Numbered from the stretch's first letter, positions 5,710 to 62,448 are shown. The stretch: DNA of 64,000 bases from a virus (IMGVR_UViG_3300037339_000380:2844-66843), one strand, 5' to 3'. The notes: generated by a model not told the origin, from the sequence alone. Numbers and translations: made by a program.

Positions 5710-6119
5710 GATCATACCTGTCTGCAGGATTAATTGTCCTACAGGGATATAAAATATTGTTGGTGCATCCTAGGAACGCTTCCTGGTGGGGAACATATTC
5801 TATACCTAAAGGGATTGTTGAACCTGGGGAATCTCCTTGGGATACTGCAATACGGGAAACAGAAGAGGAAACAGGTGTAAGAATTGATAAACGTGATACG
5901 TTTTGTGCAGGACAAATTTGGTATCCAAACAGTAAGAAATCCGTTCTATACTTTTTGGCATATCCAAAAGAACATATTGAATTAAGATTTAAACCAAATG
6001 ATGAAGTCGATTGGGCAGGGTTTGTGTCAAAAGCAGACGCTCTGCCTAGAATATTTCCTCCCCTTAAGGAGGTACTTTTATATGTTAAAGAAATGAAAAG
6101 AACAAGAAAACCAAAATGA
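5706..6119 (+). CDS. Nudix hydrolase
   Basis: Nudix box PKGIVEPGESPWDTAIRETEEETG. Confidence 0.93.
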   Translation: MRSYLSAGLIVLQGYKILLVHPRNASWWGTYSIPKGIVEPGESPWDTAIRETEEETGVRIDKRDTFCAGQIWYPNSKKSVLYFLAYPKEHIELRFKPNDEVDWAGFVSKADALPRIFPPLKEVLLYVKEMKRTRKPK

Positions 6120-6784
6120 AAAGGACAATTCTTCCAATTACTCCATTATTTGACATTCCCAAGTCAGAGAGAATTACTAATCAGGGAACAACTACATTAA
6201 AGAAAGATGTAGAAAGAATACTCCTTCCAGAATTAAAAAAGTTTGGATATGAGGGTAAGTTAATCAATTATAAGGAAGTAGAAAAAGTAAGAACAAAAAA
6301 CGTTTATTATGAAGAGGGTAAGGGCAAACCAAGTATTCCTCCCAAGGATTTATTCTTACATGAAACTTCAGGGTTCTTTCTAATGGTACAGGAACGGGGT
6401 AGAAAATCCCCCATACTATTGATGAAACCCTTTGTAAGACCTACTATTGATGATGTTACTGATATTCCAAGACTTAACTTGGAAACTGAAACAGTTCGAG
6501 GTATGATGACTTATGCAGTACCTGAAGCAAGAATAAAAGCCATATTGCATAGTGTATCAATCTTAAACCTGCATTTCATAATAATGACTGAAACAAAACA
6601 ATTTTGGATAGGTAGATTTGCTGATATTCCTGAGAACCTTTATTTTCTAACTTGGAGACATCAGAAAGGAGTATTGGATAGGTTGGCTGTAAAATCCAAA
6701 GCACATGAAACAGGACAATTTCATAGTACTAAATCAAGGTTAGCAAATGATTTGAAACTTTATATGTATCCTAAAAAATCATAA
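6116..6784 (+). CDS. Hypothetical protein (222 aa)
   Basis: ATGA-coupled ORF in the operon; no motif recognised. Confidence 0.7.
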   Translation: MKRTILPITPLFDIPKSERITNQGTTTLKKDVERILLPELKKFGYEGKLINYKEVEKVRTKNVYYEEGKGKPSIPPKDLFLHETSGFFLMVQERGRKSPILLMKPFVRPTIDDVTDIPRLNLETETVRGMMTYAVPEARIKAILHSVSILNLHFIIMTETKQFWIGRFADIPENLYFLTWRHQKGVLDRLAVKSKAHETGQFHSTKSRLANDLKLYMYPKKS

Positions 6785-6786
6785 AT

Positions 6787-7815
6787 ATGATAGTAAACAA
6801 AGATCAATTACAAAAGGCTTTGGAAATTGTAAAGCCAGGACTTGCCAACAAAGAACAGATTGAGCAGTCAACTTCCTTTGCCTTCATAAAGGGCAGGGTC
6901 ATTACTTACAATGACGAGATAAGTATTTCCCATCCCGTAAAAGGATTAAATCTTGAAGGGGCTATATTGGCTGAGAACCTGTACAAGTTCTTAACCAAGA
7001 TAAAAAAGGAAGAGATAGAACTTGAACTTGTGGATAACGAAATTGTACTTACCTCAGAAAAAGCTAAGGCAGGTCTTCTGTTACAAACAGAAATTAAACT
7101 TCCATTGAAGGAAGAGATAGCAGAGAAAAGCCAATGGCATCCCCTACCAGAAAACTTTGTACATGATGTTGCTTTTTCTATGACTGTTTGTACTAAAGAC
7201 ATGAGTCGTCCAGTTTTAACCTGTGTTCATGTAACTAAAGCAGGTTATATTGAAGCAAGTGACAGTTACAGAATTGTCCGTTGTGATTTAGGTTCCCCTA
7301 TGCCAGTAAACACTTTTTTATTACCCTCTATATCCGCAGTAGAAGTGGTTAAGATAAAACCTATTGAAGTAGCAAGTGGAAGAGGATGGGTTCATTTTAA
7401 AAATGAAGAGAAAACGATTATGTCATGTCGTATATTTGAAGATAAATATCCTCCTACAACAGGCTTCTATACCGAAGAAGGAGTTAGAGTTATCCTTCCC
7501 AAAACAACAGAAGAAATTTTGGGAAGGGCTCAAGTCTTTTCAAAGAGAGATCATTTATTGGATGAAGAGATATCCATTACAATCGAGAACAAGACATTTT
7601 TAATGGAATCCCGTTCTGATACAGGTTGGTTCAAAGAAAATGTTCCAATAAAGTATGATGGGGATCTAATCAGATTTGAAATAACTCCTTACCTGTTAAA
7701 AGGAATACTATCTGAAACACGTGAATTTAAATACGCAAAAGATAAACTGACTTTCCGAGGGGAAAGATGGTTTTATGCTTCTATGTTGAGACAAACCAAG
7801 TCAAAGAAACAATAA
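6787..7815 (+). CDS. dnaN: DNA polymerase III beta-like sliding clamp
   Basis: ~340 aa; SRPVLTCVHV, ASDSYRIV and SCRIFEDKYP correspond to the beta-clamp RpiLtGv, ATDghRL and srlieg.yP motifs. Confidence 0.8.
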   Translation: MIVNKDQLQKALEIVKPGLANKEQIEQSTSFAFIKGRVITYNDEISISHPVKGLNLEGAILAENLYKFLTKIKKEEIELELVDNEIVLTSEKAKAGLLLQTEIKLPLKEEIAEKSQWHPLPENFVHDVAFSMTVCTKDMSRPVLTCVHVTKAGYIEASDSYRIVRCDLGSPMPVNTFLLPSISAVEVVKIKPIEVASGRGWVHFKNEEKTIMSCRIFEDKYPPTTGFYTEEGVRVILPKTTEEILGRAQVFSKRDHLLDEEISITIENKTFLMESRSDTGWFKENVPIKYDGDLIRFEITPYLLKGILSETREFKYAKDKLTFRGERWFYASMLRQTKSKKQ

Positions 7816-9062
7816 TGGAAGGCTTCTTTACAAAAAAGGAAACAGAATCAAAATCCCGACCACAGGGTAAAAGAATATCCTGCGTATCTTGTGGGTTATA
7901 TGGGAATTGTCAATCCCCACGAATGGCTCCATATGGTAACTTTAAAAGAAAGATATTAAATATTGGAGAGGCTCCTGGAGAAGTGGATGATAAATATGGT
8001 AAGCCCTTCCAAGGTAAGGCTGGAAAGATGTTGCAAAGAATGTACGATGATTTGGACATTGATTTATTTGAGGATTGTGTCAATATTAATGCAGTAAATT
8101 GTCGTCCGACAGATGCCCAAGGTCACAACAGAGCCCCTTCTAACGCAGAGGTCGATTGCTGCCGAAGACGGGTACTTCAAACAATAGAGGAGTACAAGCC
8201 CAAGTTAATAATGGTACTCGGTTCTTCTGCCCTGTACAGTCTGATTGGGCACAGGTGGCGTAAGGATCTAAGTGGGATAAGTAAATGGCGTGGATTTCAG
8301 ATACCTGACCAGGATTTTAAAACTTGGATTTGCCCTACATTTAGTCCAAATTACATAGAAAAAGCAATAAATAACCCAATGTTCCAAAACAAAGGAGGTG
8401 TTATTGAAGAACTGTTTTGGAAACAAGATTTAGATTATGCTTTTAATTTGATAAAAAATAATGTTCCTGTAACCAAATACGTTGAACCTGAGATAGAGAT
8501 TATTGAAGACCTGTCTGTATTGAGTAAAATAAATTATGAAAGTGCGTTTGACTATGAAACAACAGGTTTAAAACCACACGCTGAAGGACACAGAATAGTT
8601 TGTATATCAATTGCTGACACAGAAAATCATGCTTATGCCTTTCTTTTACCTAAAACGAAAAACAAAAGACAACCCTTCATAGATTACCTAACTAACCCTG
8701 GATTACGAAAAGTAGCACAAAACCTTAAGTATGAACACACCTGGTCTAAAGTAAGATTGGGTGTGGATGTACAAGGTTGGGAATGGGATACTATGATAGC
8801 CACTCATGTAATGGACAACAGACCTGGAATAACAGGGTTAAAGTTTCAAGTATATGTACAATTTGGTATTGTTGATTATACCAGTGACGTAGACTCCTAT
8901 TTAGGTTCATCAGATGCAGAAGGGGCCAACACAAAAAACAGGATCCTTGAGTTGTTAGACAAACCTGGGGGTAAAGAAGCTTTATGTAAATACTGTGGGC
9001 TTGACAGTATTTATGAATTACGATTAGCAAACTTACAAAGAATGAATTTATTACCATTTTAA
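7815..9062 (+). CDS. Family 4 uracil-DNA glycosylase-like domain fused to a PolA 3'-5' exonuclease (N-terminal half of a split DNA polymerase)
   Basis: CxxC, IGEAPG, GKPFQGKAG and NAVNCRP (UDG4); AFDYETTGL, AQNLKYE, DTMIA and YCGLD (Exo I-III). Start moved to ATG 7815, which overlaps the clamp stop. Confidence 0.88.
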   Translation: MEGFFTKKETESKSRPQGKRISCVSCGLYGNCQSPRMAPYGNFKRKILNIGEAPGEVDDKYGKPFQGKAGKMLQRMYDDLDIDLFEDCVNINAVNCRPTDAQGHNRAPSNAEVDCCRRRVLQTIEEYKPKLIMVLGSSALYSLIGHRWRKDLSGISKWRGFQIPDQDFKTWICPTFSPNYIEKAINNPMFQNKGGVIEELFWKQDLDYAFNLIKNNVPVTKYVEPEIEIIEDLSVLSKINYESAFDYETTGLKPHAEGHRIVCISIADTENHAYAFLLPKTKNKRQPFIDYLTNPGLRKVAQNLKYEHTWSKVRLGVDVQGWEWDTMIATHVMDNRPGITGLKFQVYVQFGIVDYTSDVDSYLGSSDAEGANTKNRILELLDKPGGKEALCKYCGLDSIYELRLANLQRMNLLPF

Positions 9063-9063
9063 T

Positions 9064-9876
9064 ATGACAGCAAATAACCTAACAATCTGCATTGACGCTC
9101 CTTGTAACAAGAAGTGTCCTTACTGCATTTCTAATATGACTTTTTATCCAAAACCAGATACTTCCCTATTTGGTAGAAATATAGGAAAAGCAGTTAATAT
9201 GGCACAGATGGCATCTGTTAGCAGTGTCCTTATCTCCTCCAAGGGAGAACCATTGCTTAATATAAATGCTATTACTTTCTGTTGTGTTATGTTTGCCGAT
9301 TTCCCGTTAGAAATACAAACCAAAGGACTCCTGCTTACTCCCGAACTAATCATGAAACTACACAATCTGAGAATAAATACAATAGCTATCTCAGTAGAGA
9401 AGTATGGTGATTTGTTTGACTTTAAACATTACAAACTATGCAATGATTTAGGAATAAATATTAGAATTACCGTTGTTCTTTCTGATCTCTGGAGTCCTCC
9501 AAGTGGATATGATTTCTTGGCTGACTGTAATCAGCTTGGAATAAAACAAGTAACCTTCCGAATGTTATCTATTCCGACAAAAGAACTTACTACGGCAAAG
9601 AGTCTGAAGACTATTGAATGGATTGAGGTACATCAGATAAATCAGGAAAAACTGGCTATGTTTCTGGAACCACTCCACTCATATGAAAAGGAAGAAAATC
9701 TTGTAAGAAAACTGTCCTTTGGTCCTTCTGTCTATGAAATGGAAGGTGTAGCAGTTACCACAATGCCATATTGCATACAGGAAAATAATAACACAGAAGA
9801 TATAAGGTCATTGATTTATCATCAGGATGGCCATATGTACACATCATGGGATAAGAAAGCATCAATACTATTTTAA
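9064..9876 (+). CDS. Radical SAM protein
   Basis: CNKKCPYC, ISSKGEPLL and IQTKG. Confidence 0.85.
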   Translation: MTANNLTICIDAPCNKKCPYCISNMTFYPKPDTSLFGRNIGKAVNMAQMASVSSVLISSKGEPLLNINAITFCCVMFADFPLEIQTKGLLLTPELIMKLHNLRINTIAISVEKYGDLFDFKHYKLCNDLGINIRITVVLSDLWSPPSGYDFLADCNQLGIKQVTFRMLSIPTKELTTAKSLKTIEWIEVHQINQEKLAMFLEPLHSYEKEENLVRKLSFGPSVYEMEGVAVTTMPYCIQENNNTEDIRSLIYHQDGHMYTSWDKKASILF

Positions 9877-9877
9877 T

Positions 9878-10096
9878 ATGAAAAACGAAAAATTTAATAT
9901 GCTAAGATCAATCGGAGTTTTTAAAGATTGGCATCGTTCAGGGAAAGCTTCTGATAAAACAGAAAAAAGAAAAATGGAAAGAAGTCATGGTAGAATGGTC
10001 TGGATATCCAGAGACATATCAATACTTCCAATGACAGGACTACAATCTAATCGTGGCAGGGGAACTTATATAAGACAAAAACATGGTGTCTTATGA
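9878..10096 (+). CDS. Small basic hypothetical protein
   Basis: ATG at 9878 just after the upstream stop; ATGA overlap with the polymerase gene. Confidence 0.55.
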   Translation: MKNEKFNMLRSIGVFKDWHRSGKASDKTEKRKMERSHGRMVWISRDISILPMTGLQSNRGRGTYIRQKHGVL

Positions 10097-11505
10097 ACTA
10101 TTTAGACCCAGAAATGTACTCAGGATACCAATTGTTACATGATGGTATCTTAGCACTTGCACGTGCTGAACAACAAGGGCTTCGGGTAGATATGGAATAC
10201 CTGGAAGGTAAAAAGAAACATATCACCAGAGAAATTGAAAAACTGGAAGAACAGTTCAAGAAAACCAAATTCTTTAAACACTGGCAACATACAGTAAAAG
10301 GGAATGTTAATATTCATTCCAATGTACAGTTAGCTAATTTCCTCTACAAGATCAAAGGGATTAAAATAGAAAAAGAAACGATCTCAGGACAAGGAGCGAC
10401 CGACGAAGAGGCGTTAGGTCAGATGGGGATTCCCGAATTAACTAATTTGGTTAGGATAAGAAAACTTAAGAAAGTACGGGATACTTATTTACAAGGATTT
10501 GACAGAGAACAAATTGATGGATACATCCATCCTTTCTTTAACTTACATTTGGTAAAAACATATCGTTCCAGTTCAGATCATCCTAACTTTCAAAATATAC
10601 CCAAGCGAGATGAGGAAGCAATGAATATTGTTAGGAGAGCCTTGTTCCCACGTCCCGGACATCAGTTACTTGAACTCGACTATTCTGGACTTGAAGTACG
10701 TATTGCTGCCTGTTATCATAAGGATAAGACAATGTTACGTTATATAAAAGATCCTACGACAGATATGCATACGGATATGGCACAACAGTTGTTTATGATT
10801 GACAATTTTGATAAAGACATACCCTCTCATTATGTTTTAAGACAGGCAGCAAAAAACTCATTCGTGTTTCCAGAGTTTTACGGGGATTATTATAAAAACT
10901 GTGCAATAGGAATGGCTTGTGGTTGGGGTAAACTTCCTCAGGGGAAGTGGGGACCTGGACAGGGTATTGATATAACAGAAACAGAAACATTGTCTGACCA
11001 TTTTAGAAAGAAAGGAATTAAATCACTTGATGACTTTACCGATCATGTACAAAAGATAGAAAAGGATTTCTGGAGTAATCGTTTTGCTGATTATGCCAAG
11101 TGGAAAGAGCTTTGGTGGAAACAGTATAAGAAAACAGGTGTTGTCAAAATGTTTACAGGATTTCAATGTACAGGAGTTATGTCTAAGAATGACGTAATAA
11201 ACTATCCTGTTCAAGGTGCTGCCTTTCATTGTTTACTTTGGTCTTTTATTGAATTAGATAGAGTTATGACAAAAAACAAAATGGATTCTAAACTTGTTGG
11301 ACAGATACATGACTCCATTCTAATTGACATTAATCCTAATGAATTAGAAGATATAATCAAACTTGCATACAAAGTAACCTGTCAAGATCTACCAAAGGCT
11401 TGGTCTTGGATTATAGTTCCGTTAGATATTGAAATAGAACTTGCTCCTATAGATGGCAGTTGGGCAGAGAAAGAGAAATATGAATATAAATATTTCTTTG
11501 TGTAA
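10093..11505 (+). CDS. polA: Family A DNA polymerase, polymerase domain (C-terminal half of split PolA)
   Basis: TYRSSSDHPNFQNIP, motif A DYSGLEVR, motif B RQAAKNSFVFPEFYG, NYPVQG and motif C QIHDS. Confidence 0.95.
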   Translation: MNYLDPEMYSGYQLLHDGILALARAEQQGLRVDMEYLEGKKKHITREIEKLEEQFKKTKFFKHWQHTVKGNVNIHSNVQLANFLYKIKGIKIEKETISGQGATDEEALGQMGIPELTNLVRIRKLKKVRDTYLQGFDREQIDGYIHPFFNLHLVKTYRSSSDHPNFQNIPKRDEEAMNIVRRALFPRPGHQLLELDYSGLEVRIAACYHKDKTMLRYIKDPTTDMHTDMAQQLFMIDNFDKDIPSHYVLRQAAKNSFVFPEFYGDYYKNCAIGMACGWGKLPQGKWGPGQGIDITETETLSDHFRKKGIKSLDDFTDHVQKIEKDFWSNRFADYAKWKELWWKQYKKTGVVKMFTGFQCTGVMSKNDVINYPVQGAAFHCLLWSFIELDRVMTKNKMDSKLVGQIHDSILIDINPNELEDIIKLAYKVTCQDLPKAWSWIIVPLDIEIELAPIDGSWAEKEKYEYKYFFV

Positions 11506-11558
11506 AATAATTCATTTTATTTTTTGTATAATATACTGTTAAAATAAAAGTTTAAATT
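11506..11558 (+). promoter_or_regulatory. AT-rich intergenic spacer with a TATAAT hexamer (possible promoter)
   Basis: The only spacer of this size in the + operon; TATAAT at 11527-11532, but no convincing -35. Confidence 0.35.
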
Positions 11559-12155: not shown

Positions 12156-12156
12156 T

Positions 12157-13259: not shown

Positions 13260-13462
13260 ACTTTGCAGAACATAAGAAACGACATCAATCATTACACAAT
13301 AGTTTAGATGAACTTGTTGCTGACTATTTAAATCATAACATTTGTAAAATACCAAGTCAAACAGTATTGACTGATCTTATGAAATGGTCTTATAACCAAA
13401 CACTTGATCCTACAGAACTTAAATCTGATAATGATGGACTATCAAACAGACATACGTATTGA
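13256..13462 (+). CDS. Small hypothetical protein
   Basis: ATGA-coupled; H..LH.SLDELVADY...LMKWS.Q pattern. Confidence 0.6.
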   Translation: MNFAEHKKRHQSLHNSLDELVADYLNHNICKIPSQTVLTDLMKWSYNQTLDPTELKSDNDGLSNRHTY

Positions 13463-13919
13463 CGAAACTGCTCTCGATGTAGAGTGGTTAGAACAAAGTT
13501 CACTTGCTATGAAGTATGGCAAACATTGGGCTATATGTCGTAAACGACTAACTGAGGCAGACGAGAAAGTTAAAGTCATACGGGCAGAGCTTGTAGCACA
13601 GGCAAATAAGAACCCTATTAAGTGTTGTAATAAGGACAAACCTAACGCGGCTGATATCGAAGCATTTTACAGAAATTCCCAACGTCATAAAGAGGCTAAA
13701 GAGAAGTGGGTACAAGCCCAATACGAACTGGATATTGCTGAGATTGCTAAGAATGAAATAAGCTACACACGAAAAGTAGCATTAGAAAACTTGGTAAGAT
13801 TACATGGACAGCAATACTTTGCAGGACCAAAAGTACCAAGAGACATAACCTGGGAAAGGAAAGAGAAACAGAAAAAAGTTGATGCAGGCGTGGCAAGTAA
13901 AATGACACGTAAAAAGTAA
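13431..13919 (+). CDS. UvsY-like recombination mediator (helical)
   Basis: DIRIDETALDVEW..Q..L..KY resembles the T4 UvsY N-terminus; lies next to the SSB and RecA genes. Confidence 0.6.
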   Translation: MMDYQTDIRIDETALDVEWLEQSSLAMKYGKHWAICRKRLTEADEKVKVIRAELVAQANKNPIKCCNKDKPNAADIEAFYRNSQRHKEAKEKWVQAQYELDIAEIAKNEISYTRKVALENLVRLHGQQYFAGPKVPRDITWERKEKQKKVDAGVASKMTRKK

Positions 13920-13923
13920 TGGT

Positions 13924-14106
13924 ATGGAAAATGTTGTGGTATCTATATTGATTCTTGTTTCCTTATCAGTAGGGGCTTACCTGTTTGGAAGACTCTTTGC
14001 CAAAGGATTCTTTCGAGAGGTAGATATGCTTTTAGGTAAGAAGTTCACAGAATATATGAATAATAAACAAAAACAGAAAGAAGATGGCAACAAAGAAAAA
14101 AAGTAA
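13924..14106 (+). CDS. Small single-TM protein
   Basis: Hydrophobic N-terminus VVVSILILVSLSVGAYLF. Confidence 0.55.
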   Translation: MENVVVSILILVSLSVGAYLFGRLFAKGFFREVDMLLGKKFTEYMNNKQKQKEDGNKEKK

Positions 14107-15241
14107 TTTCAATTTTAAAGGGAAGACGTCAAGTGATGCTCAACGTCAGCAGAAAGCCGCTTCCTCTTACGGATACTTATCTCTTACAAAGGGATTAAGT
14201 GTTTTCAGTCCTGAACCTGGTGGCAGAGTAAAATTTGACATCATCCCTTACACGGTAACGGATCCAAAACATCCTGACAAAAACGCAGAATTAGGAATAG
14301 CCGTTGTAGGGAAACCCTGGTACAAACGTCCTTTTAAACTTCACAGGAACGTTGGTAGTGCAAATGAAATAGCTATTTGCCCGACCTCAATTGGTAAGAA
14401 ATGCCCTATTTGTGAATATAGGATTAAACGTATTAAAGAACAAGCGGAGAAGGAAGAAACAGATGCTTTAAAAGCTTCACTCCGAAACTTGTATCTGGTA
14501 ATTCCTAAAGGGCATAAAAAGTTTGAAGAAGTTGTTCATCTGTTTGATATAAGTCAATACAACTTCCAAGCATTACTAAATGAGGAATTACAGGAGGATG
14601 AATCCAAAGGAAACTTTCCAAGTCTTGATGAGGGGGAATCATTAAAGGTACGTTTTGAATCCAAAACAATTGGAGGTAGTCAACCTTTTGCTCAGGCAAG
14701 TCGTATTGACTTTGAAGAAAGAGATGAACAATATGACTGGTCGATGTTGGATGAATCCCCAAACTTGGATGAAATGCTCAATATTTTAAGTTATGATGAG
14801 CTACACGCCAAGTTCCACGAATTGGAAGATGAGGAGGTAGGAGGTAAATTGACAAAAGTCAAAGATGAGGAGGATGATGACGAGGAGGAAGAGGAAGAAA
14901 AACCGACACGTAAAAGAAAGTCACTACCCAAATCAAAGAAAAAGGAAGAGGAGGATGATGACGAGGAGGAAGAGGATGACGAGGAGGAAGAGGAAGAAAA
15001 ACCTGTTCAACGTAGGAAGGCCGTTAAAAAAATAGTCAAAGAAGAAGAAGACGAGGATGAAGAGGAGGAAGATGAGGAGGAAGATGATGAACCTGTTACT
15101 ACCAAAAATAAAACTAAGAAGAAAGACAGATGTCCGTCTGGTTACAGATTTGGAATTGACACAGAAAAATATGATGAATGTGCCGATTGCGAAATATGGG
15201 ATGAGTGCTTAGAAGCCAAACGTAAAAACAAAGGAAAATAA
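14084..15241 (+). CDS. T4 gp32-like single-stranded DNA-binding protein with long acidic tail and C-terminal Cys domain
   Basis: H...CPTSIGKKCPICE Zn site, D/E-rich repeats and C-terminal CP.G..FG...C.DC..W..C. Confidence 0.75.
   Translation: MATKKKSNFNFKGKTSSDAQRQQKAASSYGYLSLTKGLSVFSPEPGGRVKFDIIPYTVTDPKHPDKNAELGIAVVGKPWYKRPFKLHRNVGSANEIAICPTSIGKKCPICEYRIKRIKEQAEKEETDALKASLRNLYLVIPKGHKKFEEVVHLFDISQYNFQALLNEELQEDESKGNFPSLDEGESLKVRFESKTIGGSQPFAQASRIDFEERDEQYDWSMLDESPNLDEMLNILSYDELHAKFHELEDEEVGGKLTKVKDEEDDDEEEEEEKPTRKRKSLPKSKKKEEEDDDEEEEDDEEEEEEKPVQRRKAVKKIVKEEEDEDEEEEDEEEDDEPVTTKNKTKKKDRCPSGYRFGIDTEKYDECADCEIWDECLEAKRKNKGK
14867..15090 (+). repeat. Imperfect direct repeats encoding acidic tracts
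   Basis: GAGGAGGATGATGACGAGGAGGAAGAGGA at 14867 and 14948, plus a degenerate third tract. Confidence 0.8.
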
Positions 15242-15582
15242 TGACACTGTTAAAAGCAAGCAATAAGGAGGAGCTTAGACTGGTGGGGGTACATTTACCC
15301 TCATCCGTCTATGATTATCTGACTCTTTATACCTTATCAAAGGGTATTACCAAATCAGCATTGTTAAGACAATTGCTCGATCCATGGATAGAGGCAGAAA
15401 AAACTGATGAATCAGTGCTACTGGAACAGATTGTACAACGTATTCAATCTGGATGGAGAAAGAAAAAGAAGTTACATCCAAAAACAAGTTTCAATCAGTT
15501 CATAACTGAGATTAAAAAAGAACTTCTTGGAAAAGGATTGACACGGGTTCAAGTTAAATCAATATTATCTAATTTTGAATAA
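15241..15582 (+). CDS. Ribbon-helix-helix-like DNA-binding protein
   Basis: RLVGVHLP..VYDYL.......GITKSALLRQLL pattern. Confidence 0.55.
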   Translation: MTLLKASNKEELRLVGVHLPSSVYDYLTLYTLSKGITKSALLRQLLDPWIEAEKTDESVLLEQIVQRIQSGWRKKKKLHPKTSFNQFITEIKKELLGKGLTRVQVKSILSNFE

Positions 15583-16640
15583 TGGAACGAACTAAAAAGT
15601 CAACGTCATTGAGTGATCAACTTAAAAAGAAGGTAAATGGACCTGTCAGAACAAAACACAATGAGTTTAAAGGAAAATTCTTCGGCAACAACATTAGCAC
15701 AGGATCCACCTTACTTGACTTGGCCATATCGGGAGGTCGTGTACGTGGGGGAGGGTTGCCAGCAGGTATTCTCGTTGAAATATTTGGTCCAAGTGGCTCC
15801 GGCAAAACAGTCTTGTTATCAGAAATTGCAGGTAACATCCAAGCCAAAGGTGGTCAGGTAATGTTTCATGATCCTGAGGCAAGACTTAACAAACAGTTTG
15901 CTAAAATGTTTGGATTAAACTTGGAAGAAGAAGATTATGGTAGACCTGACACAGTCCCTGAAGTCTTTAAAGCCGTACGTGCATGGAGTCCTAATGGAAA
16001 AAACGATACTATTCATGGTGTAATGGCTGACTCCCTTGCCGCGTTATCAACAGGACAAGAGATGGATAAGGATGAAGGGGATAAGATGGGAATGCGTAGG
16101 GCTAAAGAATTCAGTGAGGAACTACGAAAGACCTGTCGCATATTAGCTCATAACAACTACCTTATGGTGTGTAGTAACCAAGTTCGTATCAATGTAGGAG
16201 GAGGTGATTGGGGACCTAAATACACTACACCTGGTGGAGAGGCTGTTGGTTTTTATTCAAGTGTACGGTTAAAGACACAAATCGTAAAAAAGATAACAAA
16301 AAAGAAAAAGATTCATGGAAAAGAAGTTAGTAGAGTTATTGGTGTTGATGCTGAAGTGGAAGTGTTTAAAAACTCCGTTTGGAAACCCTTTCATAAGGCT
16401 CCTGTTACCATTATATTTGATTACGGGATTGATGATATACGACAGAACTTACAGTTTCTTAAAGACAATTCAAGTAAGTCGACCTATTATCTTGGTAACG
16501 AAACACTCAAGAATAGTATTGAGGAATCAATAGTCATGGTTGAGAAAAATGACTGGGAAGAAAGATTACGACAAGAAGTTATATTATTATGGACAAGTAT
16601 TGAATCACAATTTGATAGTCATCGTAAACCTAAAAGATAA
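15582..16640 (+). CDS. recA: RecA/UvsX recombinase
   Basis: ISTGS..LDLAI.GG, GLP.G..VEIFGPSGSGKT, DSLAAL, NQVR and TTPGGEA..FYSSVR. Confidence 0.95.
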   Translation: MERTKKSTSLSDQLKKKVNGPVRTKHNEFKGKFFGNNISTGSTLLDLAISGGRVRGGGLPAGILVEIFGPSGSGKTVLLSEIAGNIQAKGGQVMFHDPEARLNKQFAKMFGLNLEEEDYGRPDTVPEVFKAVRAWSPNGKNDTIHGVMADSLAALSTGQEMDKDEGDKMGMRRAKEFSEELRKTCRILAHNNYLMVCSNQVRINVGGGDWGPKYTTPGGEAVGFYSSVRLKTQIVKKITKKKKIHGKEVSRVIGVDAEVEVFKNSVWKPFHKAPVTIIFDYGIDDIRQNLQFLKDNSSKSTYYLGNETLKNSIEESIVMVEKNDWEERLRQEVILLWTSIESQFDSHRKPKR

Positions 16641-16645
16641 ATAAT

Positions 16646-16948: not shown

Positions 16949-17497
16949 ATGGAACGTACAATAAGAAAGATGAGTCAGAATGTCATTCTAACGAATGATC
17001 CAAGTATTACTGCCTGGGGTTGGGCTGTCTTGAATGATCAAAATAAAGTACTTGAAATTGGTTGTATAAAGACAGCAACTGAAGGAAAGAAACGCAGAAT
17101 ACGTAAAGGGGATGAAACCGTCAGGAGAGTGAGTGAGGTAGTTCAACAATTACTTACAATCATTGACAAACATAAAGTCAATTTCTTGGTATCAGAACTA
17201 CCACACGGTAGTCAAAATGCTCAGGCAGCAGTCATGATAGGTATTGTAACTGGAATAGTTCAAACTATGTCTGATTGTTTAGGTATTCCTGTAGAATGGT
17301 TTTCCGAAGGAGACGCTAAAAAGGCCGTACTGAATAAAAGGTCAGCAACCAAGACGGAGATGGTTAAAGCCATTGACAAGTTATATAGAGTACCTTGGGT
17401 AAATACAAAGTACATAGACGAGGCGGTAGCCGACTCATTGGCAGTTCATTACGTAGCAAGTAAGGAAAGTTCAATTCTAAAGATGATGAAAAGATGA
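16949..17497 (+). CDS. ruvC: RuvC-like Holliday junction resolvase
   Basis: ILTNDPS..AWGWAVL, VSE, K.A....SATK.EM and ADSLAV. Confidence 0.85.
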   Translation: MERTIRKMSQNVILTNDPSITAWGWAVLNDQNKVLEIGCIKTATEGKKRRIRKGDETVRRVSEVVQQLLTIIDKHKVNFLVSELPHGSQNAQAAVMIGIVTGIVQTMSDCLGIPVEWFSEGDAKKAVLNKRSATKTEMVKAIDKLYRVPWVNTKYIDEAVADSLAVHYVASKESSILKMMKR

Positions 17498-18159: not shown

Positions 18160-18332
18160 TTCAGCAACTTCTCAAGTTCTTAAAAAGAAAGAATAAATCA
18201 ATAGTACCTCATAAAGTTGATGGGTATTATAAGGATATTAAAATAGGGGAATCCAAAGAAGGATGGGATGAGTTTATTAAGACAAAAGAAGGATTGATTA
18301 AAGTTCCACCAGACAGAATAGAAATACACTAA
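18156..18332 (+). CDS. Small hypothetical protein (58 aa, not in the ORF track)
   Basis: MIQQLLKFLKRK...IEIH*; ATGA overlap upstream and TAATG overlap downstream fill the gap exactly. Confidence 0.6.
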   Translation: MIQQLLKFLKRKNKSIVPHKVDGYYKDIKIGESKEGWDEFIKTKEGLIKVPPDRIEIH

Positions 18333-19273
18333 TGATTAAATCACTCAAAATAAAGAACTTTCAAAGTCATGCTCAAACAGAACTTAACTTTTCCAAAGGA
18401 GTCAATGTCATCATTGGAGAAACAGATGCAGGAAAAACGGCGATTATACGAGCTTTGCGTTGGCTTATTTGGAACCGACCATCTGGAGATTCCATCCGTT
18501 CTAATTGGGGGGGAGACACATCTGTTGAGCTTACCATCAAAGACAATATCATTCGTAGGGATAAAGATAAAAAGGATTCATACGTGTTGGTTAATACCAA
18601 CGGGAAAGATATTACATTTAAGGCTATTGGTACTTCAGTTCCGGAGGAAATCAAAAGTGTTCTTAATATCAACGAAGTAAATCTACAAACTCAATTAGAA
18701 CCTCATTTTCTGTTGAGTAAAACATCAGGGGAAGTTGCCCAATACTTCAATAAAGTTGCTAAACTTGACATTATTGACAGAACAACTGACAACATCAATA
18801 AAGCTATACGTGATTTAAAATCTGACATCAAGTACAAAGAGAATGATATAAAATCAGAGAAAGAGGAAATAAAGAAATTTGATTACCTTGATAAGATGGA
18901 AGCTGAGATTGAGGTATTAGAGGATATTGACAATCATTTAACCAGTGTCAAAAACAAATATAGAAAACTACAAGAACTGGTTGCCTCAGTCAAAACAACA
19001 GAAAATAAAATAGTAAAAGCCTCCCAGAGTTTAAAGATGGAAAAGAAGGTAAACGTGTTGTTACAATTATACAAGGACAAGAAAAACGTAGAGAGGGATA
19101 AAATGCTGTTAAATCAGGCAATTTCTACTATAAACAGTACAACTGTATCCCTTAAAAACAATGAGGCAAGACACACACGATTGCTTGCCCTGTTTCAAAA
19201 GAACTTTCCTGATATTTGTCCTCTTTGCGATCAACCTGTAAAACATAAACATGGAAAGAACGAAAGTAAATAG
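18332..19273 (+). CDS. sbcC: SbcC/Rad50-like ATPase, N-terminal half
   Basis: IKNFQSH, Walker A GETDAGKT, Q-loop and coiled coil ending in a CPLC zinc hook. Confidence 0.9.
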   Translation: MIKSLKIKNFQSHAQTELNFSKGVNVIIGETDAGKTAIIRALRWLIWNRPSGDSIRSNWGGDTSVELTIKDNIIRRDKDKKDSYVLVNTNGKDITFKAIGTSVPEEIKSVLNINEVNLQTQLEPHFLLSKTSGEVAQYFNKVAKLDIIDRTTDNINKAIRDLKSDIKYKENDIKSEKEEIKKFDYLDKMEAEIEVLEDIDNHLTSVKNKYRKLQELVASVKTTENKIVKASQSLKMEKKVNVLLQLYKDKKNVERDKMLLNQAISTINSTTVSLKNNEARHTRLLALFQKNFPDICPLCDQPVKHKHGKNESK

Positions 19274-20222
19274 TAAGCAAATATTAAAAATACGAGAAAG
19301 GCAACATGAAGTAATTGCCCAAATTCCTGATGAAATTTTATTTGGGCATAAGGCAAAAAAGAAACCTGACTTGATACTTACAAGTGACTGGCACCTTCGG
19401 GAAGATACACCTACCTGTTTTACAGGAGATTGGAATTATGAGCAATGGAAAGCCGTAGAATTTGTCAGACATTTGCAATATAAATATAAAAGCCCTGTAA
19501 TCCATGCCGGTGATTTATTTCATCATTGGAAACCTTCTCCTGCTCTTATATCACAGGCTTTGTTCTTCTTACCAAATGATTTTTATACTATCTACGGACA
19601 ACATGACCTTCCTCAACATAACTGGGAATTAAGAACAAAGAGTGGATTACATACTTTAGAAGTAGCAGGTAAGATAAAAGTATTAAAGGGATATCATTAC
19701 GGGCAACCTATTTATACAGGTGCTGGAAGTGATAACAGATTTGGTATAAAAATGCTTGTTTGGCATCATCTAACATACATTAACCCACCTTTCCCAGGAG
19801 CAACAGGAGGAGAAGCACAATCTATATTAAGAAAATATCATCAGTTTGATTTAATAGTAACTGGAGACAACCATCAATCATTTTCTACCAGAAATGTTAA
19901 TAACACTCTTGTTAATCCTGGCAGTTTAACCCGTCAAACGGCAGATCAGATAGACTTTAAACCAAGGGTTTACTTATGGTACGCTGATACAAATACCGTA
20001 GAACCCGTATTCATACCGATACAAAAAGGAATGATTACTCGTGAACATATTGAAAAAAAAGAGGAAAGAGATAATCGTATCGAAGCATTCATAAGTAAAT
20101 TAGATGAAGAATGGGGTTTATCCTGGTCTTACCCAGAAACGTTAGAACAGTTCTTTGCGAAGAATAAAACGAAGGATTCAATTAAAAACATCATTTATAA
20201 AGCAATGGAAAATGTAACTTAA
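19251..20222 (+). CDS. sbcD: SbcD/Mre11-like metallophosphoesterase nuclease
   Basis: SDWH, AGDLF, GQHD, HH, GDNH and NPGSL.R. Confidence 0.9.
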   Translation: MERTKVNSKQILKIRERQHEVIAQIPDEILFGHKAKKKPDLILTSDWHLREDTPTCFTGDWNYEQWKAVEFVRHLQYKYKSPVIHAGDLFHHWKPSPALISQALFFLPNDFYTIYGQHDLPQHNWELRTKSGLHTLEVAGKIKVLKGYHYGQPIYTGAGSDNRFGIKMLVWHHLTYINPPFPGATGGEAQSILRKYHQFDLIVTGDNHQSFSTRNVNNTLVNPGSLTRQTADQIDFKPRVYLWYADTNTVEPVFIPIQKGMITREHIEKKEERDNRIEAFISKLDEEWGLSWSYPETLEQFFAKNKTKDSIKNIIYKAMENVT

Positions 20223-44064: not shown

Positions 44065-44065
44065 A

Positions 44066-49949: not shown

Positions 49950-50909
49950 TTATTTATAATACTTGACTATATCTTCAATATAAGGTAATGCAATACAACG
50001 ACAATACGGATGATAAGGTATTAAAGGTTCTATTTCATCCAATGTAAATATTTTACCTTCCAAAGATGCACACTTCTCACACACCCTATCATCCCCAGCC
50101 GTTACCCATTCTGCCTTAACGTACACATCTTCCAATCCCCAATTACGATATTCTTGTATTGAAGCTAAATGGAAAGCTCTTATGATTTCTGTACGAGCTA
50201 ACATCATAGCTCTACGTTCAGCAGGAATAAAACGACCTAATGTATCAGTAAGACTTAATTTCCCCAGGTCTGTTCCATCAATTGAAGCTATCAATTTACG
50301 AGCCAATAACGTTGGATTGTCTCCATCAATCATACCCTGTGCAAGTATCCTGCTAATCATAGAATCCATTGCATTAGTGATTCCATTTAAGTCTGAAAAC
50401 ACTCTGGTATAGAGTAAACCAACACGATCAATATGAAATGGAGTACCATTAAGTATTGCATCAATACCCCCGGCTTCTTCTAATGATGAAATAGGAAACC
50501 CTGCTTTCTTCAATTCAGCACGGGCACGTATGATTCCCCGCTTGTACGAATCCAATATATAAAGATTTGTCCAAGCCTGTTCCATTGACATACCTAACTG
50601 CTGAAACGTTCCCACCGATAACACACCCTTATCAACTTGTTGACGTAACCAACGCATAAAAGCATCTACCTTATCAGGATCCCGTAAATAATTGAACGCT
50701 CCTGAACCCGGTGGGGTCATTTGATTAATAATTATTTTATACTTATCCAACCCAAAACAATCCTGTTCAAGTAAAGCTTCACGAATCACACGTTTCAATT
50801 CTACAACACGTACTTTCATAGCTTTAGCAAATGAATTACGTAATGCCGTAGTATGAGTAGGGTCGTAATTATGACGTTGAATTTCAGTATATGTAACTAC
50901 CTCTTCCAT
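49950..50909 (-). CDS. Head morphogenesis protein (Mu gpF / SPP1 gp7 family)
   Basis: RA..LARTEI.RA, W.TAGDDRVC..C..LEG and P.HP.CRC. Confidence 0.9.
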   Translation of the reverse strand: MEEVVTYTEIQRHNYDPTHTTALRNSFAKAMKVRVVELKRVIREALLEQDCFGLDKYKIIINQMTPPGSGAFNYLRDPDKVDAFMRWLRQQVDKGVLSVGTFQQLGMSMEQAWTNLYILDSYKRGIIRARAELKKAGFPISSLEEAGGIDAILNGTPFHIDRVGLLYTRVFSDLNGITNAMDSMISRILAQGMIDGDNPTLLARKLIASIDGTDLGKLSLTDTLGRFIPAERRAMMLARTEIIRAFHLASIQEYRNWGLEDVYVKAEWVTAGDDRVCEKCASLEGKIFTLDEIEPLIPYHPYCRCIALPYIEDIVKYYK

Positions 50910-52399
50910 TATTTTGTTGGTGCAGGTTTTTTAGTTGCTGGTTTTTTAGTTGCTGGTGTCATTGGTCTTCCCATTGGCATTGCTATCTTAGGCTCAGGAG
51001 GATCAGCTTTCTTTTTAATTACCGCTTCCAGTTCCTCTTCTGATATCATCTTATCCCTCATCTTCTTGACATAAGTACGTTGTTCCGTTGTAAAGCCTAA
51101 GAACAGATCATTAAAAGCATCCGGTGGTATAAGTTCTTGTTCAATTGGATTGTATGAATACTCACGCAAAGCCGCCGCACGGTTCTTCCCAATCTCAACT
51201 CTTGACTTCTCACTAATTGAAAACAGATCCTGCCAAAGTACTGTATAATCCTCTCCTGGCTTAGGTAATATTCCAAGTTCAATAAAACGATCAACTGTAG
51301 GACGTACAATTCTTGGTTCTGCATGATCTTCTCTACGTGCCTGTACATACGTCAACCATTCCGTTGTGTCTTGAGTACTTGCCAATTCCCCACGTTCACT
51401 ACCTGACAACACACGAACTGGTATTCCCGTTTGGGAAGATATCAGTTTTAATTGAGTGTCAAGGTGTGGAGTAGGATCAGTAATGTCTTGTGTTAATGGT
51501 TCAATATCAACTCCTTCATTTATAAGAAACCTACGTAAATCATTTTCATACTCATCAAGTTGATCTAACAAGTCTATTTTAGTTTGGTTAGTCATTGTAT
51601 ATTCTTTGTCCACTTTTCCATGAAACCCTGGACGAGCACCCCTCCAAAACATTTCTGCGGCTCCCCCTGCTATCTTCTCAATATTCATAAGACAATTATA
51701 TACAGGTTCCAAACGCGGAGTACCATAGACCTCAGACTCTAAATTATCATCTGTTATATGTATGACCCTAGAATAATGAACCTTCACGGATTTGCTAAGG
51801 TTTGAGGCAATATCAGTAGTCTCAATGGCATACAGTACAGGAAGCCCATAACGTTTATTGCTTGGGTTGATTTCAAAGGTATCTACCTTTGCCGAATCCT
51901 CAGCAAAAGGTTTTAAGTAAATCAATTTATGAGATGTCTTTTCATTAACAGGATTAGCAAAAGAATCTCCATTTTTAGCATCTTCCAATCCCATTAATAT
52001 TATACCATACCTACCAATACCAGTCAAACGGTCAACCCTTGAAAACAAAGATTTCATTCCCATCTTCCTGTTCAAGTTTTTCCATGCCTCTTCAAATCCT
52101 GTATCCTCTGCTTTATTCGCCTCAATTAATTCAAGAGGACCTGACCAAGTTGACTTTACAGGACGATCAATAATAGCCTTTGCTACCTCTTGACGAGTGT
52201 ACCTTGCAAAGTAATCAGAAAAATTAAGAACCTTTGAATATCCAAGTGCTTTGTATATATCACGAATATCACCATATTGAAGTCCTAACTTCGCAGCCAA
52301 TAAGACCCTGTTAGTCAATTCGCTAAGCACTTGGATTCTTCTCCCATCCATGGGCTTTACTTTTGCAACATAAGGTTTTGTGCGTTCCATTCTTATCAT
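50909..52399 (-). CDS. Portal protein (DUF1073-like)
   Basis: AKAIIDRP...TW, YGLP..Y, VHYSRVIH and GIP.RVL.G.E.GELAST.D; position before gpF. Start is 52399 or 52390. Confidence 0.85.
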   Translation of the reverse strand: MIRMERTKPYVAKVKPMDGRRIQVLSELTNRVLLAAKLGLQYGDIRDIYKALGYSKVLNFSDYFARYTRQEVAKAIIDRPVKSTWSGPLELIEANKAEDTGFEEAWKNLNRKMGMKSLFSRVDRLTGIGRYGIILMGLEDAKNGDSFANPVNEKTSHKLIYLKPFAEDSAKVDTFEINPSNKRYGLPVLYAIETTDIASNLSKSVKVHYSRVIHITDDNLESEVYGTPRLEPVYNCLMNIEKIAGGAAEMFWRGARPGFHGKVDKEYTMTNQTKIDLLDQLDEYENDLRRFLINEGVDIEPLTQDITDPTPHLDTQLKLISSQTGIPVRVLSGSERGELASTQDTTEWLTYVQARREDHAEPRIVRPTVDRFIELGILPKPGEDYTVLWQDLFSISEKSRVEIGKNRAAALREYSYNPIEQELIPPDAFNDLFLGFTTEQRTYVKKMRDKMISEEELEAVIKKKADPPEPKIAMPMGRPMTPATKKPATKKPAPTK

Positions 52400-53843: not shown

Positions 53844-53844
53844 C

Positions 53845-54943: not shown

Positions 54944-54945
54944 GA

Positions 54946-58168: not shown

Positions 58169-58169
58169 A

Positions 58170-58598: not shown

Positions 58599-58599
58599 A

Positions 58600-60348: not shown

Positions 60349-60380
60349 ACTATCAGTTTTTAGTTATTATACCTTATATA

Positions 60381-60656
60381 TTATACATTAAACACTTCAT
60401 CCGGTACACTGGCTAAAGCTATTGCAGTAGCTTCAGCAATGACTTGTTTAAAGAACCCACAAATCACTGCTTTCTGTGGGTCAGTAGCAGTTGCAAGTAT
60501 AGTCATTACATTTACTGCAACTCCTTTCATATCCATGCCACTGGAGTCATATACCTCCATATTGACATACGCCATTTTGTCTTTCAAGCTAAACGTAATA
60601 TTTTCAACTCTGTGTAATACTCCAGTCTGTGCCGGAATGTCTTTCGTGATATCCAT
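60381..60656 (-). CDS. Hypothetical protein
   Basis: ORF within the late operon. Confidence 0.55.
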   Translation of the reverse strand: MDITKDIPAQTGVLHRVENITFSLKDKMAYVNMEVYDSSGMDMKGVAVNVMTILATATDPQKAVICGFFKQVIAEATAIALASVPDEVFNV

Positions 60657-60667
60657 TTTTTTAAGTT

Positions 60668-60916
60668 TTAACGGTTATAAAATACAGTATTCTTTTCATG
60701 CGTTTTGTACAAAACTGGTAAAGTGGCTATTCCATTTACTATGGTAAACGAAATTAAGTCATGCTTATGAATATTCCAAACAGTTAGCTTAATACCTAAA
60801 GCAACGGGTTCCCTGTAAAACGGATACTCAATGTCAGTCTCCAGATCACGTACCACTCCTTCATTGGGAGTTGTAGCCCATCCATTGTTCATCTTTACCA
60901 CTACACCGTATGACAT
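60668..60916 (-). CDS. Small protein, possibly a cold-shock-like OB fold
   Basis: GVVVK.N......EG.V.D......Y.F...D.ISF.I..G.A. Confidence 0.45.
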   Translation of the reverse strand: MSYGVVVKMNNGWATTPNEGVVRDLETDIEYPFYREPVALGIKLTVWNIHKHDLISFTIVNGIATLPVLYKTHEKNTVFYNR

Positions 60917-62448
60917 TACGTGATCCTCCTCGCAATTTTCTTACCTGCTAATTTACTAAATGCACCAGCTGCAGAGTCAACCTGGTCTTTATAAGTGCTA
61001 AATGGAAAAAACCGATGTTCTTCAATAAACTCTCGGTTCCATAATCCATTCATAAGTATAAAATTATCATTGTTTACCTGTACAGAATACGGGTCAGCCC
61101 TGAATATCTTATCTCCCGTGGGACGCTCTGCGTAAACGGAGAAGCCAGCCAGGTTCAGAATTGAAGCCTGGGCTGACTCTTTCCCTCCTGAGCCGGGTTC
61201 CTGCTCTAACCAAATCCTTACTCTTGGACCATCCGCCTCAGCAGTTGATCTGATTATATTTTCTCGTTCATCTGTACTCCACCTGCCTCGCTTGACATCT
61301 TCAACAAGAAACTTCCCACTGGTTAATATACTCATGCGAGTACCTACCGTAAAAGGAGCTCCCCCCGCCTGAGTACCTGCCTTGTCCCAATATCTTACAG
61401 TCATTACTATTTCCGAACCCTTGGGCATCACATTGATCATTTGGAAGTGATCTACTCTGAACATACCTCCTCCAGGAGGAGTTGGATTCTGTCCCACCTG
61501 CCCTGCATATCCATACTGACCTAAGTCAGCCTCCATATCCTTCAATACCTTCCAAGGTATACGAACTGGGTCAAGTAAATCATCTATATACTTTGTAACC
61601 AATTCTGGAGGTTTGAGGTACTGTTTAAAATTACGTATTTCACCTGGGAAAGCAATGTGCCTGATGTTCTCTTTCTGTTTAGAAAGGATATGACCTGAAG
61701 GGTCATCCTGGTGGAGCCGTTGCATGATCACAATGGTTGGTGTGACAGCTTTGTCAGTTTTACGGGTGCTAAGGGTCTGTTCCATCCAGCGGTTTGCGTT
61801 GGCAATTTCTACCTCCGATACGGCTTGGGTTGGATTAAGAGGATCATCTACGATCAGTATATCACCGTGAAATCCGATCAGCGTGCCACCTACGGATGTC
61901 GTGTAACGACTTCCACCAGTCTCTGACCTTTGTTGCTTGTAGGGAATACCCCCTAACTTTTTTATAATGCTAAAATTTGATTTGGTATCTTTGTCCTCTC
62001 GGATACCCAGGTCTGGGTAAATCTCTTGAAACTGATCACTGCGGAGTATGTTCCTACAGTGATCGGCTATTTCTAATGACAACTGTGATGAGTAAGAAGC
62101 ACAGATAAACTTCATCTTGTACCACTTGGTCCAGCACCATGCTGGGAACATGACTGAGCACGTCATCGTCTTCGTAGTCCCAGGGGGTACATTTATAATA
62201 AGGTCATATTCACGTGGTTCTTTTCTGGCTACCCTCTCCGCTACACGCTCCAACTCCTTGCATAAATACTCAATGTGCCAATTCCCTTTGAACGGCTGAG
62301 TATTGACTACATCCCAGAAATACTGAATGAAGTGATACAGCGACATATTATTCAAAGCCCTGATTGTAGCAACAGGATTCTCCAACGCCTTTTGATATAA
62401 CTGCATTTTATCCTGAACCTCCTTCTTGGCAGGTTTCGTGCGTCGCAT
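60916..62448 (-). CDS. terL: Terminase large subunit
   Basis: LIINVPPGTTKT, G.HGD.LIVDDP, IMQRLH.DD, YWDKAG, EQEPGSGGK and DQVDS; likely start is ATG 62448, 1 nt after the terS stop. Confidence 0.95.
   Translation of the reverse strand: MRRTKPAKKEVQDKMQLYQKALENPVATIRALNNMSLYHFIQYFWDVVNTQPFKGNWHIEYLCKELERVAERVARKEPREYDLIINVPPGTTKTMTCSVMFPAWCWTKWYKMKFICASYSSQLSLEIADHCRNILRSDQFQEIYPDLGIREDKDTKSNFSIIKKLGGIPYKQQRSETGGSRYTTSVGGTLIGFHGDILIVDDPLNPTQAVSEVEIANANRWMEQTLSTRKTDKAVTPTIVIMQRLHQDDPSGHILSKQKENIRHIAFPGEIRNFKQYLKPPELVTKYIDDLLDPVRIPWKVLKDMEADLGQYGYAGQVGQNPTPPGGGMFRVDHFQMINVMPKGSEIVMTVRYWDKAGTQAGGAPFTVGTRMSILTSGKFLVEDVKRGRWSTDERENIIRSTAEADGPRVRIWLEQEPGSGGKESAQASILNLAGFSVYAERPTGDKIFRADPYSVQVNNDNFILMNGLWNREFIEEHRFFPFSTYKDQVDSAAGAFSKLAGKKIARRIT

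Follow-up and report, generated by a model that had tools for sequence, protein, structure and literature searches.

The window analysed here is a stretch of 64,000 nucleotides, corresponding to bases 2,844–66,843 of the 66,843-bp single-contig virus record IMGVR_UViG_3300037339_000380. The phage is of the siphovirus type, with 7-deazaguanine, replication and recombination genes in a left arm on the + strand, and tail, head and packaging genes in a right arm on the − strand. Our subject is a short peptide close to Met-Glu-Arg-Thr-Lys that is shared by the N-termini of otherwise unrelated DNA-processing proteins in both arms. An earlier reading of the sequence (the original prediction) listed eight sites, and all eight are present, as follows.

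15582–16640, + strand: RecA/UvsX-like recombinase (Pfam RecA, E 1.2e-38; phrog_97, UvsX-like), with MERTKK at 15582–15599
16949–17497, + strand: RuvC-like Holliday junction resolvase, with MERTIRK at 16949–16969
19251–20222, + strand: SbcD/gp47-like nuclease (metallophosphatase, Metallophos_2 from residue 42), with MERTKV at 19251–19268
50909–52390, − strand: portal (Phage_portal_3, E 6e-32; phrog_146), with MERTKP at 52373–52390
60916–62472, − strand: large terminase subunit, TerL (phrog_38, E 7e-77), with MRRTKP at 62431–62448
46791–47180, − strand: ORF129, a small head-module protein with no Pfam or PHROG match, with the variant MERKRRP at 47160–47180
6116–6784, + strand: ORF222, with no family match and the weakest member, with the variant MKRTI at 6116–6130
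5706–6119, + strand: Nudix hydrolase (NUDIX, E 4e-17 over residues 6–122), with a C-terminal tail MKRTRKPK at 6093–6116 followed by the stop

The assignments to RecA/UvsX, RuvC, Phage_portal_3, TerL and NUDIX hold, as does that of the SbcD-type metallophosphatase, whose first 23 nt overlap the gene for an SbcC-like ATPase (18332–19273). The portal open reading frame (ORF) has its first ATG at 52399, giving MIRMERTKP, and the start at 52390 is the most likely one because most orthologues begin at the motif, and Met1 of a 39%-identical portal aligns with Met4 of the window protein. The TerL start is ambiguous between 62448 and 62472; the ORF from 62472 reads MMGLEVSEMRRTKP, and the ATG at the motif (62448) is 1 nt past the stop of the small terminase subunit gene, TerS. 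The peptide had been placed on an extension before the conserved domain, which is the case in RuvC, SbcD, portal and TerL, but in RecA it is a mere tip ahead of the usual N-terminal helix (in an AlphaFold model residues 1–9 are coil, 10–19 helix, and 21–34 of low confidence). The RuvC motif is on a 12-residue extension before strand 1 (ILTNDPS), with the Pfam RuvC domain spanning residues 13–166 from profile position 1, and in both RuvC and SbcD the motif is ~8–12 residues ahead of the first strand with the catalytic Asp. RecA has a second motif-like segment, P-V-R-T-K, at residues 21–25. Two of the copies originally included, MERKRRP of ORF129 and MKRTI of ORF222, are present but are weaker variants with orthologue support from only one ORF129 homologue, which is in the related locus L001, is 73% identical and starts MERKKRA; no further relatives of ORF129, and none of ORF222, were found in IMG/VR. 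We note that window positions 6093–6130 (+ strand) hold two copies of ATGAAAAGRACAA, 23 nt apart and in different frames, which encode the MKRT of the Nudix C-terminus and the MKRT start of ORF222; the 13 nt from 6093 and the 13 nt from 6116 agree at 12 positions.

Starts of this type are far more numerous than N-terminal composition would give, as had been anticipated for a genome-wide count against shuffled N-termini. Five of 92 crudely called window genes (first ATG per ORF, greedy overlap removal) begin M[EKR]R[TK], namely RecA, RuvC, SbcD, ORF129 and ORF222, with 0.39 expected from position-specific N-terminal composition and 0.10 from bulk composition, and none of 20,000 column shuffles reached five. 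There are three MERT starts (expected 0.05 and 0.016 respectively), and 3.2% of the shuffles have any tripeptide three times among the starts. Portal and TerL represent two more copies, which are outside the five since their ORFs have an earlier ATG. Within the first 20 residues the density of R-T-[KRI] is about six-fold that of the remaining sequence, both in the window (7 in 1,820 residues versus 11 in 19,325) and in 429 genes of related loci (33 in 8,580 versus 44 in 69,282), where the N-terminal count averaged 8.8 over 500 shuffles and never exceeded 20. At 18 of 45 sites in the first 20 residues of called genes the Arg is exactly at position 3. A chance origin of the shared N-termini is excluded.

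Metagenomic proteins passing thresholds number 4,238 for RecA, 2,299 for SbcD and 1,547 for portal, and the best 120 of each were examined. The counts below are for sequences beginning with Met, nearly all of which are 55–78% identical to the window proteins.

RecA: 119 sequences, with an M[EKQ]R start in 100, Arg at position 3 in 109, Thr at position 4 in 58, and Lys or Arg at position 5 in 80
SbcD: 118 sequences, with an M[EKQ]R start in 90, Arg at position 3 in 104, Thr at position 4 in 68, and Lys or Arg at position 5 in 95
Portal: 119 sequences, with an M[EKQ]R start in 89, Arg at position 3 in 90, Thr at position 4 in 61, and Lys or Arg at position 5 in 75

The motif is thus retained in orthologues, the point on which the original prediction had staked itself. 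Portals start MERT in 52 of the 120 orthologues listed; the portal of L001 (90% identical) starts MERTKF, those at 39–44% identity start MKRT, and SbcD orthologues typically start MERTRQIKKPDLILTSDWHL. The pattern [EKQRI]RT[KRI] is within the first 30 residues of 55 RecA, 75 SbcD and 58 portal proteins, and past residue 30 there are 5, 1 and 8 occurrences in 38,415, 31,456 and 55,256 residues respectively. In MAFFT alignments Arg3 of RecA is fully conserved in the 120 aligned sequences and ranks first of 352 columns; in SbcD its conservation is 0.93 (rank 92 of 323) and in portal 0.85 (rank 183 of 493, above the median). Glu2 and Thr4 are at or below the median column, positions 6–9 are among the least conserved, and the families part ways after residue 5, with K-P-E-P in RecA, x-N-K-K in SbcD and H-N-K-K in portal. 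Position 2 is Glu, Gln or Lys and hardly ever Asp or Asn (0, 1 and 3 of the RecA, SbcD and portal sequences), an oddity that would suit a requirement for a long side chain and equally one for a VAR codon. The motif is therefore a conserved island at the tip of a variable tail, and no uniformly invariant block. Its consensus is a hydrophobic residue (Met1, or Ile, Leu or Val in internal copies), Glu/Gln/Lys, Arg, Thr, and Lys/Arg, often followed by Lys and Pro, and it is a property of a whole large uncultured phage clade, beyond the single phage.

Further carriers were counted in IMG/VR and GTDB loci around RecA and TerL, a choice that biases the representation of families. R-T-[KRI] is in the first 22 residues of 8 of 18 TerL genes (first-ATG calls, window copy included), mostly 5–10 residues past the first ATG and directly after the TerS stop, and two of 17 TerS proteins carry the motif, each with two copies (MRRTISKRRTISK; MIRTK...RRTKP). 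RuvC carries it in three of six IMG/VR loci, and in GTDB loci all five RuvC proteins begin M-x-R or have R-T in the first 8 residues, with R-T-[KRI] in three; the forms in close RuvC relatives are MERTKNK, MKRTTSTK, MERTKSNK and MKRERTIK. Resolvases of other types in the position following RecA are also tagged, with MERTRTKTERKKPR, MVRTRQ, MIERKRTIN, MMERTINTK and MERTKKNKENT. We note that the genes in this position (in L009, L010, L014, L004 and L052) are resolvase-like but non-homologous, and include the RuvC type, an A-K-G-R...Q-Q-W type, an I-G-I-D-N-G type and a 205-aa protein, and that all of them retain the motif, as if the gene bodies had been swapped behind a kept start. Across TerL, TerS and the four non-homologous resolvase types the motif is sporadic. 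In these same loci it is absent from the protein that binds single-stranded DNA (SSB; 0 of 14 and 0 of 12), SbcC (0 of 10 and 0 of 6), the clamp loader (0 of 9) and ORF162 (0 of 14). Clamp, polymerase, capsid and tail proteins have no motif either. The initial description of a phage-wide tag was consequently too broad, the motif being confined to DNA-end, junction and packaging proteins.

Among 150 RuvC cluster representatives, an M.RT start is present in 6 of 34 anchored sequences of the top 45 and in 0 of 43 among the rest; distant representatives have no extension and begin 1–3 residues ahead of strand 1, and the tagged RuvC extension is clade-specific. There are no M.RT starts in the cultured Cellulophaga phages phi12:1 (62 genes) and phiST (78 genes in 50 kb, including RecA, metallophosphatase and TerL). 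A whole-record scan for the start pattern in five large relatives gave 1–5 matches each, versus 1–5 for a reversed-pattern control, and of 11 such matches inspected outside the known loci two are real gene starts, one of RecA and one of SbcD; with so few genic matches, the exact N-terminal form is unusually dense in the window phage. The complete relative G001 is missing the motif from RecA, RuvC, SbcD and TerL.

These distributions bear on a simple explanation in which there is no common function, each family having inherited its own basic DNA-holding tail and the likeness arising from composition and short length. All of the carriers are DNA-handling proteins, among which basic tails are common, the families diverge past position 5, and Arg3 alone stands out in conservation. 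However, the same ordered five residues, acidic Glu included, occur in at least five unrelated families, composition-preserving shuffles fail to reproduce the pattern, and neither the other DNA-binding proteins of the same phages nor the outgroup phages have it. We consider an absence of common function very improbable.

Codon usage at 31 DNA instances of the motif was compared with background usage. The Arg codons are AGA (11), AGG (6), CGG (5), CGA (4), CGC (3) and CGT (2) and the Thr codons ACA (15), ACG (8), ACT (5) and ACC (3), with chi-square p 0.44 for Arg and p 0.054 for Thr. The codons differ between the window genes, as claimed from the outset, with CGN at five of the six window Arg codons and the rare CGC (2% of Arg codons) used twice. 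A nucleotide motif GAACG, hinted at by the window codons, was rejected, as relatives freely use AGA and AGG and usage matches background. No sequence common to the regions upstream of the 31 motif starts was found beyond A-richness and a purine at −3 (27 of 31), and a clear Shine-Dalgarno sequence is lacking in 30 of 31, the exception being L005 7663 with AGGAGG upstream. A translational operator of the RegA type is a conserved RNA sequence around the AUG of the regulated genes, and with nothing shared upstream and background codons the 31 instances do not resemble one. Some RecA tails have two or three motif units, with Ile, Leu or Val standing for Met in the internal copies, and the diverged tandem units retain R-T-K (e.g. 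MERTKKPT-IQRTKES-APTRTKK and MERTKNNE-IERTKKPE-IERTKKE). The free codon choice, the lack of a shared upstream sequence, and the existence of diverged internal copies, internal TerL copies and the C-terminal Nudix copy argue that the constraint is on the peptide rather than the RNA, in agreement with the original prediction. As judged from the sequences, this is probably a short linear motif kept by selection on the protein in an uncultured siphovirus clade.

We note that a strong Shine-Dalgarno sequence, AAAGGAGG, is present upstream of window genes at 47224, 48360, 48839, 36763, 38580 and 20869 (capsid, decoration, protease or scaffold, and tail tube), and that most other window genes, every motif carrier included, have A-rich leaders only.

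The position of the motif raises the question of a signal at the level of translation, with initiation or early elongation tuned by the nascent pentapeptide or by the five codons that open the gene, in genes that have no Shine-Dalgarno sequence and are translationally coupled to their upstream neighbour. Such a signal would suit the placement of Arg exactly at position 3, the A-rich leaders with a purine at −3, the several carrier starts that adjoin or overlap an upstream stop, and the VAR codons at position 2. However, synonymous positions are free, the motif is kept in internal, diverged and C-terminal copies, and many genes of the same phages without a Shine-Dalgarno sequence, including those for SSB, SbcC and the clamp loader, have no motif. 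The determinants that PMC6847099 names from ribosome profiling of F. johnsoniae are the start codon's first base and positions upstream (0, −3, −6, −12 and −13). A translational role is decidedly unlikely.

A third explanation is that an enzyme of the phage or host recognises the motif as a tag. It could be, for example, a protease, a kinase, a degradation adaptor or a transferase (N-terminal or Thr/Arg-modifying), and it would set the timing, the activity or the lifetime of the packaging motor, the recombinase and potentially dangerous nucleases. The near-invariant Arg3 and preferred Thr4 resemble an enzyme substrate motif, most copies are at the exact N-terminus, and the genome is rich in transferases (GT2s, a sulfotransferase, an RmlD-like protein and methyltransferases, at 38.9–46.8 kb) and has a head protease. 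However, the annotated genes include no recognised kinase, ADP-ribosyltransferase or dedicated protease, the transferase block is located in the structural module, and the tandem units suit multivalent binding better than a single processing site. There is a precedent in phage T4, where the otherwise unrelated internal proteins have only the capsid targeting sequence, a conserved N-terminal peptide, in common, as described in PMC3012670. The likeness is of one N-terminal peptide across unrelated proteins, but the T4 sequences are unrelated to the motif and direct proteins into the prohead scaffolding core. RecA, RuvC and SbcD are cytoplasmic and TerL is no virion component, leaving portal, and perhaps ORF129, as head components; a capsid-targeting role thus misfits the unpackaged TerL and RecA. 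We regard an enzyme-recognition tag as unlikely.

The recombination module is T4-like, with a gp32-fold SSB, a candidate UvsY, a UvsX-like RecA and an SbcCD pair; the gene order is ORF162, SSB (ORF385), RecA, RuvC and the SbcC/SbcD pair. The first two of these are as follows.

13431–13919: ORF162, the candidate UvsY (in ESM Atlas a similar cluster scores 0.94, with Pfam UvsY in 17% of its members)
14084–15241, + strand: ORF385, gp32-type SSB (AlphaFold pLDDT >87 for residues 31–240; Foldseek matches to gp32)

The SSB has the build of a gp32-type protein, with a basic N-terminus (MATKKKS), an OB core housing a zinc finger, and an acidic C-terminal region that is unusually long. The best Foldseek matches are the T4 gp32 core 1gpc (E 2.4e-7, TM 0.62 by target length) and RB69 gp32 (E 3.7e-7), and H87, C99, C107 and C110 are invariant in 13 SSB sequences. 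A sequence search against PDB chains gave insignificant low-complexity matches, the best to a chromodomain protein (E 0.15), and these were disregarded. Three acidic blocks (12, 18 and 17 Asp/Glu residues) alternate with basic K-P-x-R-R-K linkers, and are followed by a conserved acidic four-Cys mini-domain at the C-terminus, C-P-x-G-x-x-F-G ... C-x2-C-x2-W-x2-C, which is lacking in T4 gp32. Of the 13 distinct SSB orthologues listed, 12 have acidic blocks, and L014 is without a run of five or more. The acidic blocks and the acidic four-Cys end domain are possible docking surfaces.

We tentatively favour the possibility that the motif is a shared recruitment handle that brings its carriers to SSB-coated phage DNA. 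The carriers (the UvsX-like recombinase, the SbcD nuclease, Holliday junction resolvases of several folds, TerL, sometimes TerS, and portal) all work on branched, replicating, concatemeric DNA, and the peptide would tether them to one substrate complex, phage DNA under the gp32-type SSB, by binding either SSB or nucleic acid next to it. This handle is favoured because the carriers must meet on branched, SSB-coated, concatemeric DNA, and because the motif is ordered, family-restricted and sometimes multivalent. The T4 account in PMC3012670 has related associations, with the resolvase gp49 associating with portal, and genetics tying gp17 to gp32.

In a more elaborate version the pentapeptide would be an address label of the clade with a dedicated reader, either the four-Cys mini-domain of SSB or its acidic blocks and basic linkers. 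The recombinase, end-processing nuclease, resolvases, terminase and portal-bearing prohead would then be gathered in one factory on SSB-coated DNA, possibly a charge-driven condensate, in which recombination-dependent replication, branch removal and packaging would be physically coupled via a five-residue code, with the tandem copies in some RecA tails tuning valency. We regard this version as distinctly improbable.

Several observations weigh against the recruitment handle, whether or not it has a dedicated reader. The motif is sporadic in TerL, TerS and RuvC, and apart from Arg3 it is conserved no better than an average folded-domain position, the top-residue frequency at Thr4 being 0.55–0.67. 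Glu is at position 2 in 60–82% of sequences, which is odd for a peptide binding DNA or an acidic surface. The orthologues share descent, so that their counts represent non-independent events, and the preference for position 3 (18 of 45 sites) also suits a mechanism tied to the translation start. There is no co-variation with the proposed partner, since relatives in which RecA is without the motif (L007 and L008) keep an SSB with acidic blocks, one of them, G001, being without the motif on RuvC, SbcD and TerL as well; in the few genomes available these blocks and the C-terminal Cys module occur with tagged and untagged RecA alike. A single co-folding run of full-length SSB with RecA residues 1–40 scored 0.00 against a mark of 0.32, which gives the handle no support but does not count against it.

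The closest analogue of the recruitment handle is the LAST motif, Lys-Arg-Lys-Ser-Thr at residues 3–7 of T4 gp32, with the formula (Lys/Arg)3(Ser/Thr)2. As described in PMC12893549, it docks gp32 on the core of a neighbouring gp32 bound to single-stranded DNA, and a near-identical sequence lines the trough for that DNA. Each is a short basic and hydroxyl peptide that begins at residue 3 in a flexible N-terminal segment, and each phage combines a T4-like recombination module with an SSB of the gp32 fold. However, LAST is on the SSB itself and serves SSB–SSB cooperativity, whereas here the peptide is on the recombinase, nucleases, terminase and portal, and never on the SSB of the clade, which has a separate basic start (MATKKKS, MAKKK...). 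The consensus M-E-R-T-[KR]-K also departs from the LAST formula: it has a single Thr besides two or three basic residues, and its Glu2 is conserved. The C-terminal domain of T4 gp32 is described in the same source as binding other replication, recombination and repair proteins (PMC12893549). The likeness to such hub-docking systems is that different DNA enzymes would be brought to a common hub by a short terminal peptide or patch. Clamp-binding motifs have a hydrophobic or aromatic consensus at the protein terminus, and the motif here is instead polar and basic, unlike PIP-type peptides (the phage clamp is encoded at 6787–7815). SSB tails bind pockets on folded partner domains rather than a common partner peptide. 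Basic N-terminal arms that bind nucleic acid include the phi29 connector N-terminus, which binds pRNA, the lambda repressor arm and the histone H3 tail. These too have Arg/Lys and Ser/Thr at the extreme N-terminus, that of phi29 is on a portal, and the A-R-T-K start of H3 resembles M-x-R-T-K. To our knowledge each of these arms is specific to one family, and none is common to unrelated enzymes of one virus.

The window phage has no near relative among 50,697 cultured phage records, with no match by megablast. The best protein identities to cultured phages are 39% for portal (haloarchaeal viruses), 38% for TerL (Cellulophaga phages) and 35% for RecA (Hafnia phage yong2), and Cellulophaga phage RecA proteins match the window RecA at 28%. 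For the portal, haloarchaeal tailed viruses (31–39% identity, E down to 4e-77) are closer cultured relatives than any bacterial phage. The replication genes are of bacterial type. Thirteen contigs with a RecA relative (12 of the clade, and one at 32% identity) are in GTDB metagenome-assembled genomes binned to ~10 lineages, and the clade contigs (L052–L064) sit in genomes of Paceibacterota, Nitrospiraceae, Omnitrophota, Halanaerobiales, Bacteroidota and Deferribacterales, among others. Because these bins span ~10 unrelated lineages, the taxon labels are unreliable as evidence of host, and no host can be called.

Several other features of the genome are of interest. A family A DNA polymerase is encoded in two + strand ORFs, one with a UDG-like domain and 3′–5′ exonuclease (7767–9062) and one with the polymerase domain (10093–11505), separated by a radical-SAM gene (9064–9876) and an 89-aa ORF; this arrangement (7767–11505) could represent a split polymerase or an inserted element. 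The 7-deazaguanine set at 73–5709 (+ strand) and in the 2.8 kb preceding the window comprises genes for GTP cyclohydrolase I, a radical-SAM protein, QueC and a tRNA-guanine-transglycosylase/DpdA-like protein, and suggests that the DNA is modified; a DpdA-like gene is in three of the five large relatives, and its presence shows no clear link to the motif. Between the head and connector genes, at 38947–46794 (− strand), there is a block of ~10 sugar-modification genes with a sulfotransferase, three GT2 glycosyltransferases, an RmlD-like reductase, an NAD-binding enzyme, a methyltransferase and a sialyltransferase-like protein, which hints at glycosylation of virion proteins. Where the transcription arms meet, 23437–23811 (+ strand) encodes a small protein whose DNA-binding domain is NUMOD or I-HmuI-like; it is probably what remains of a homing endonuclease, or else a partner to one.

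Indirect evidence has long been held to indicate that phage recombination, branch resolution and DNA packaging are physically coupled, and we know of no simple shared element that explains the coupling of recombination to packaging. Full-text searches of the literature, which did not extend to supplementary files, found no description of the motif; shared docking peptides are known as a device, and what is new here is the motif, the set of carriers and the clade. As the five-residue peptide sits on exactly the recombination, resolution and packaging set, the coupling becomes experimentally tractable. The motif is also a marker for start-codon choice in the clade, as for the portal here, and a signature by which members of an abundant group of uncultured phages may be spotted. 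If a reader exists, the peptide would provide a small portable tag for recruiting cargo to sites of phage replication and packaging.

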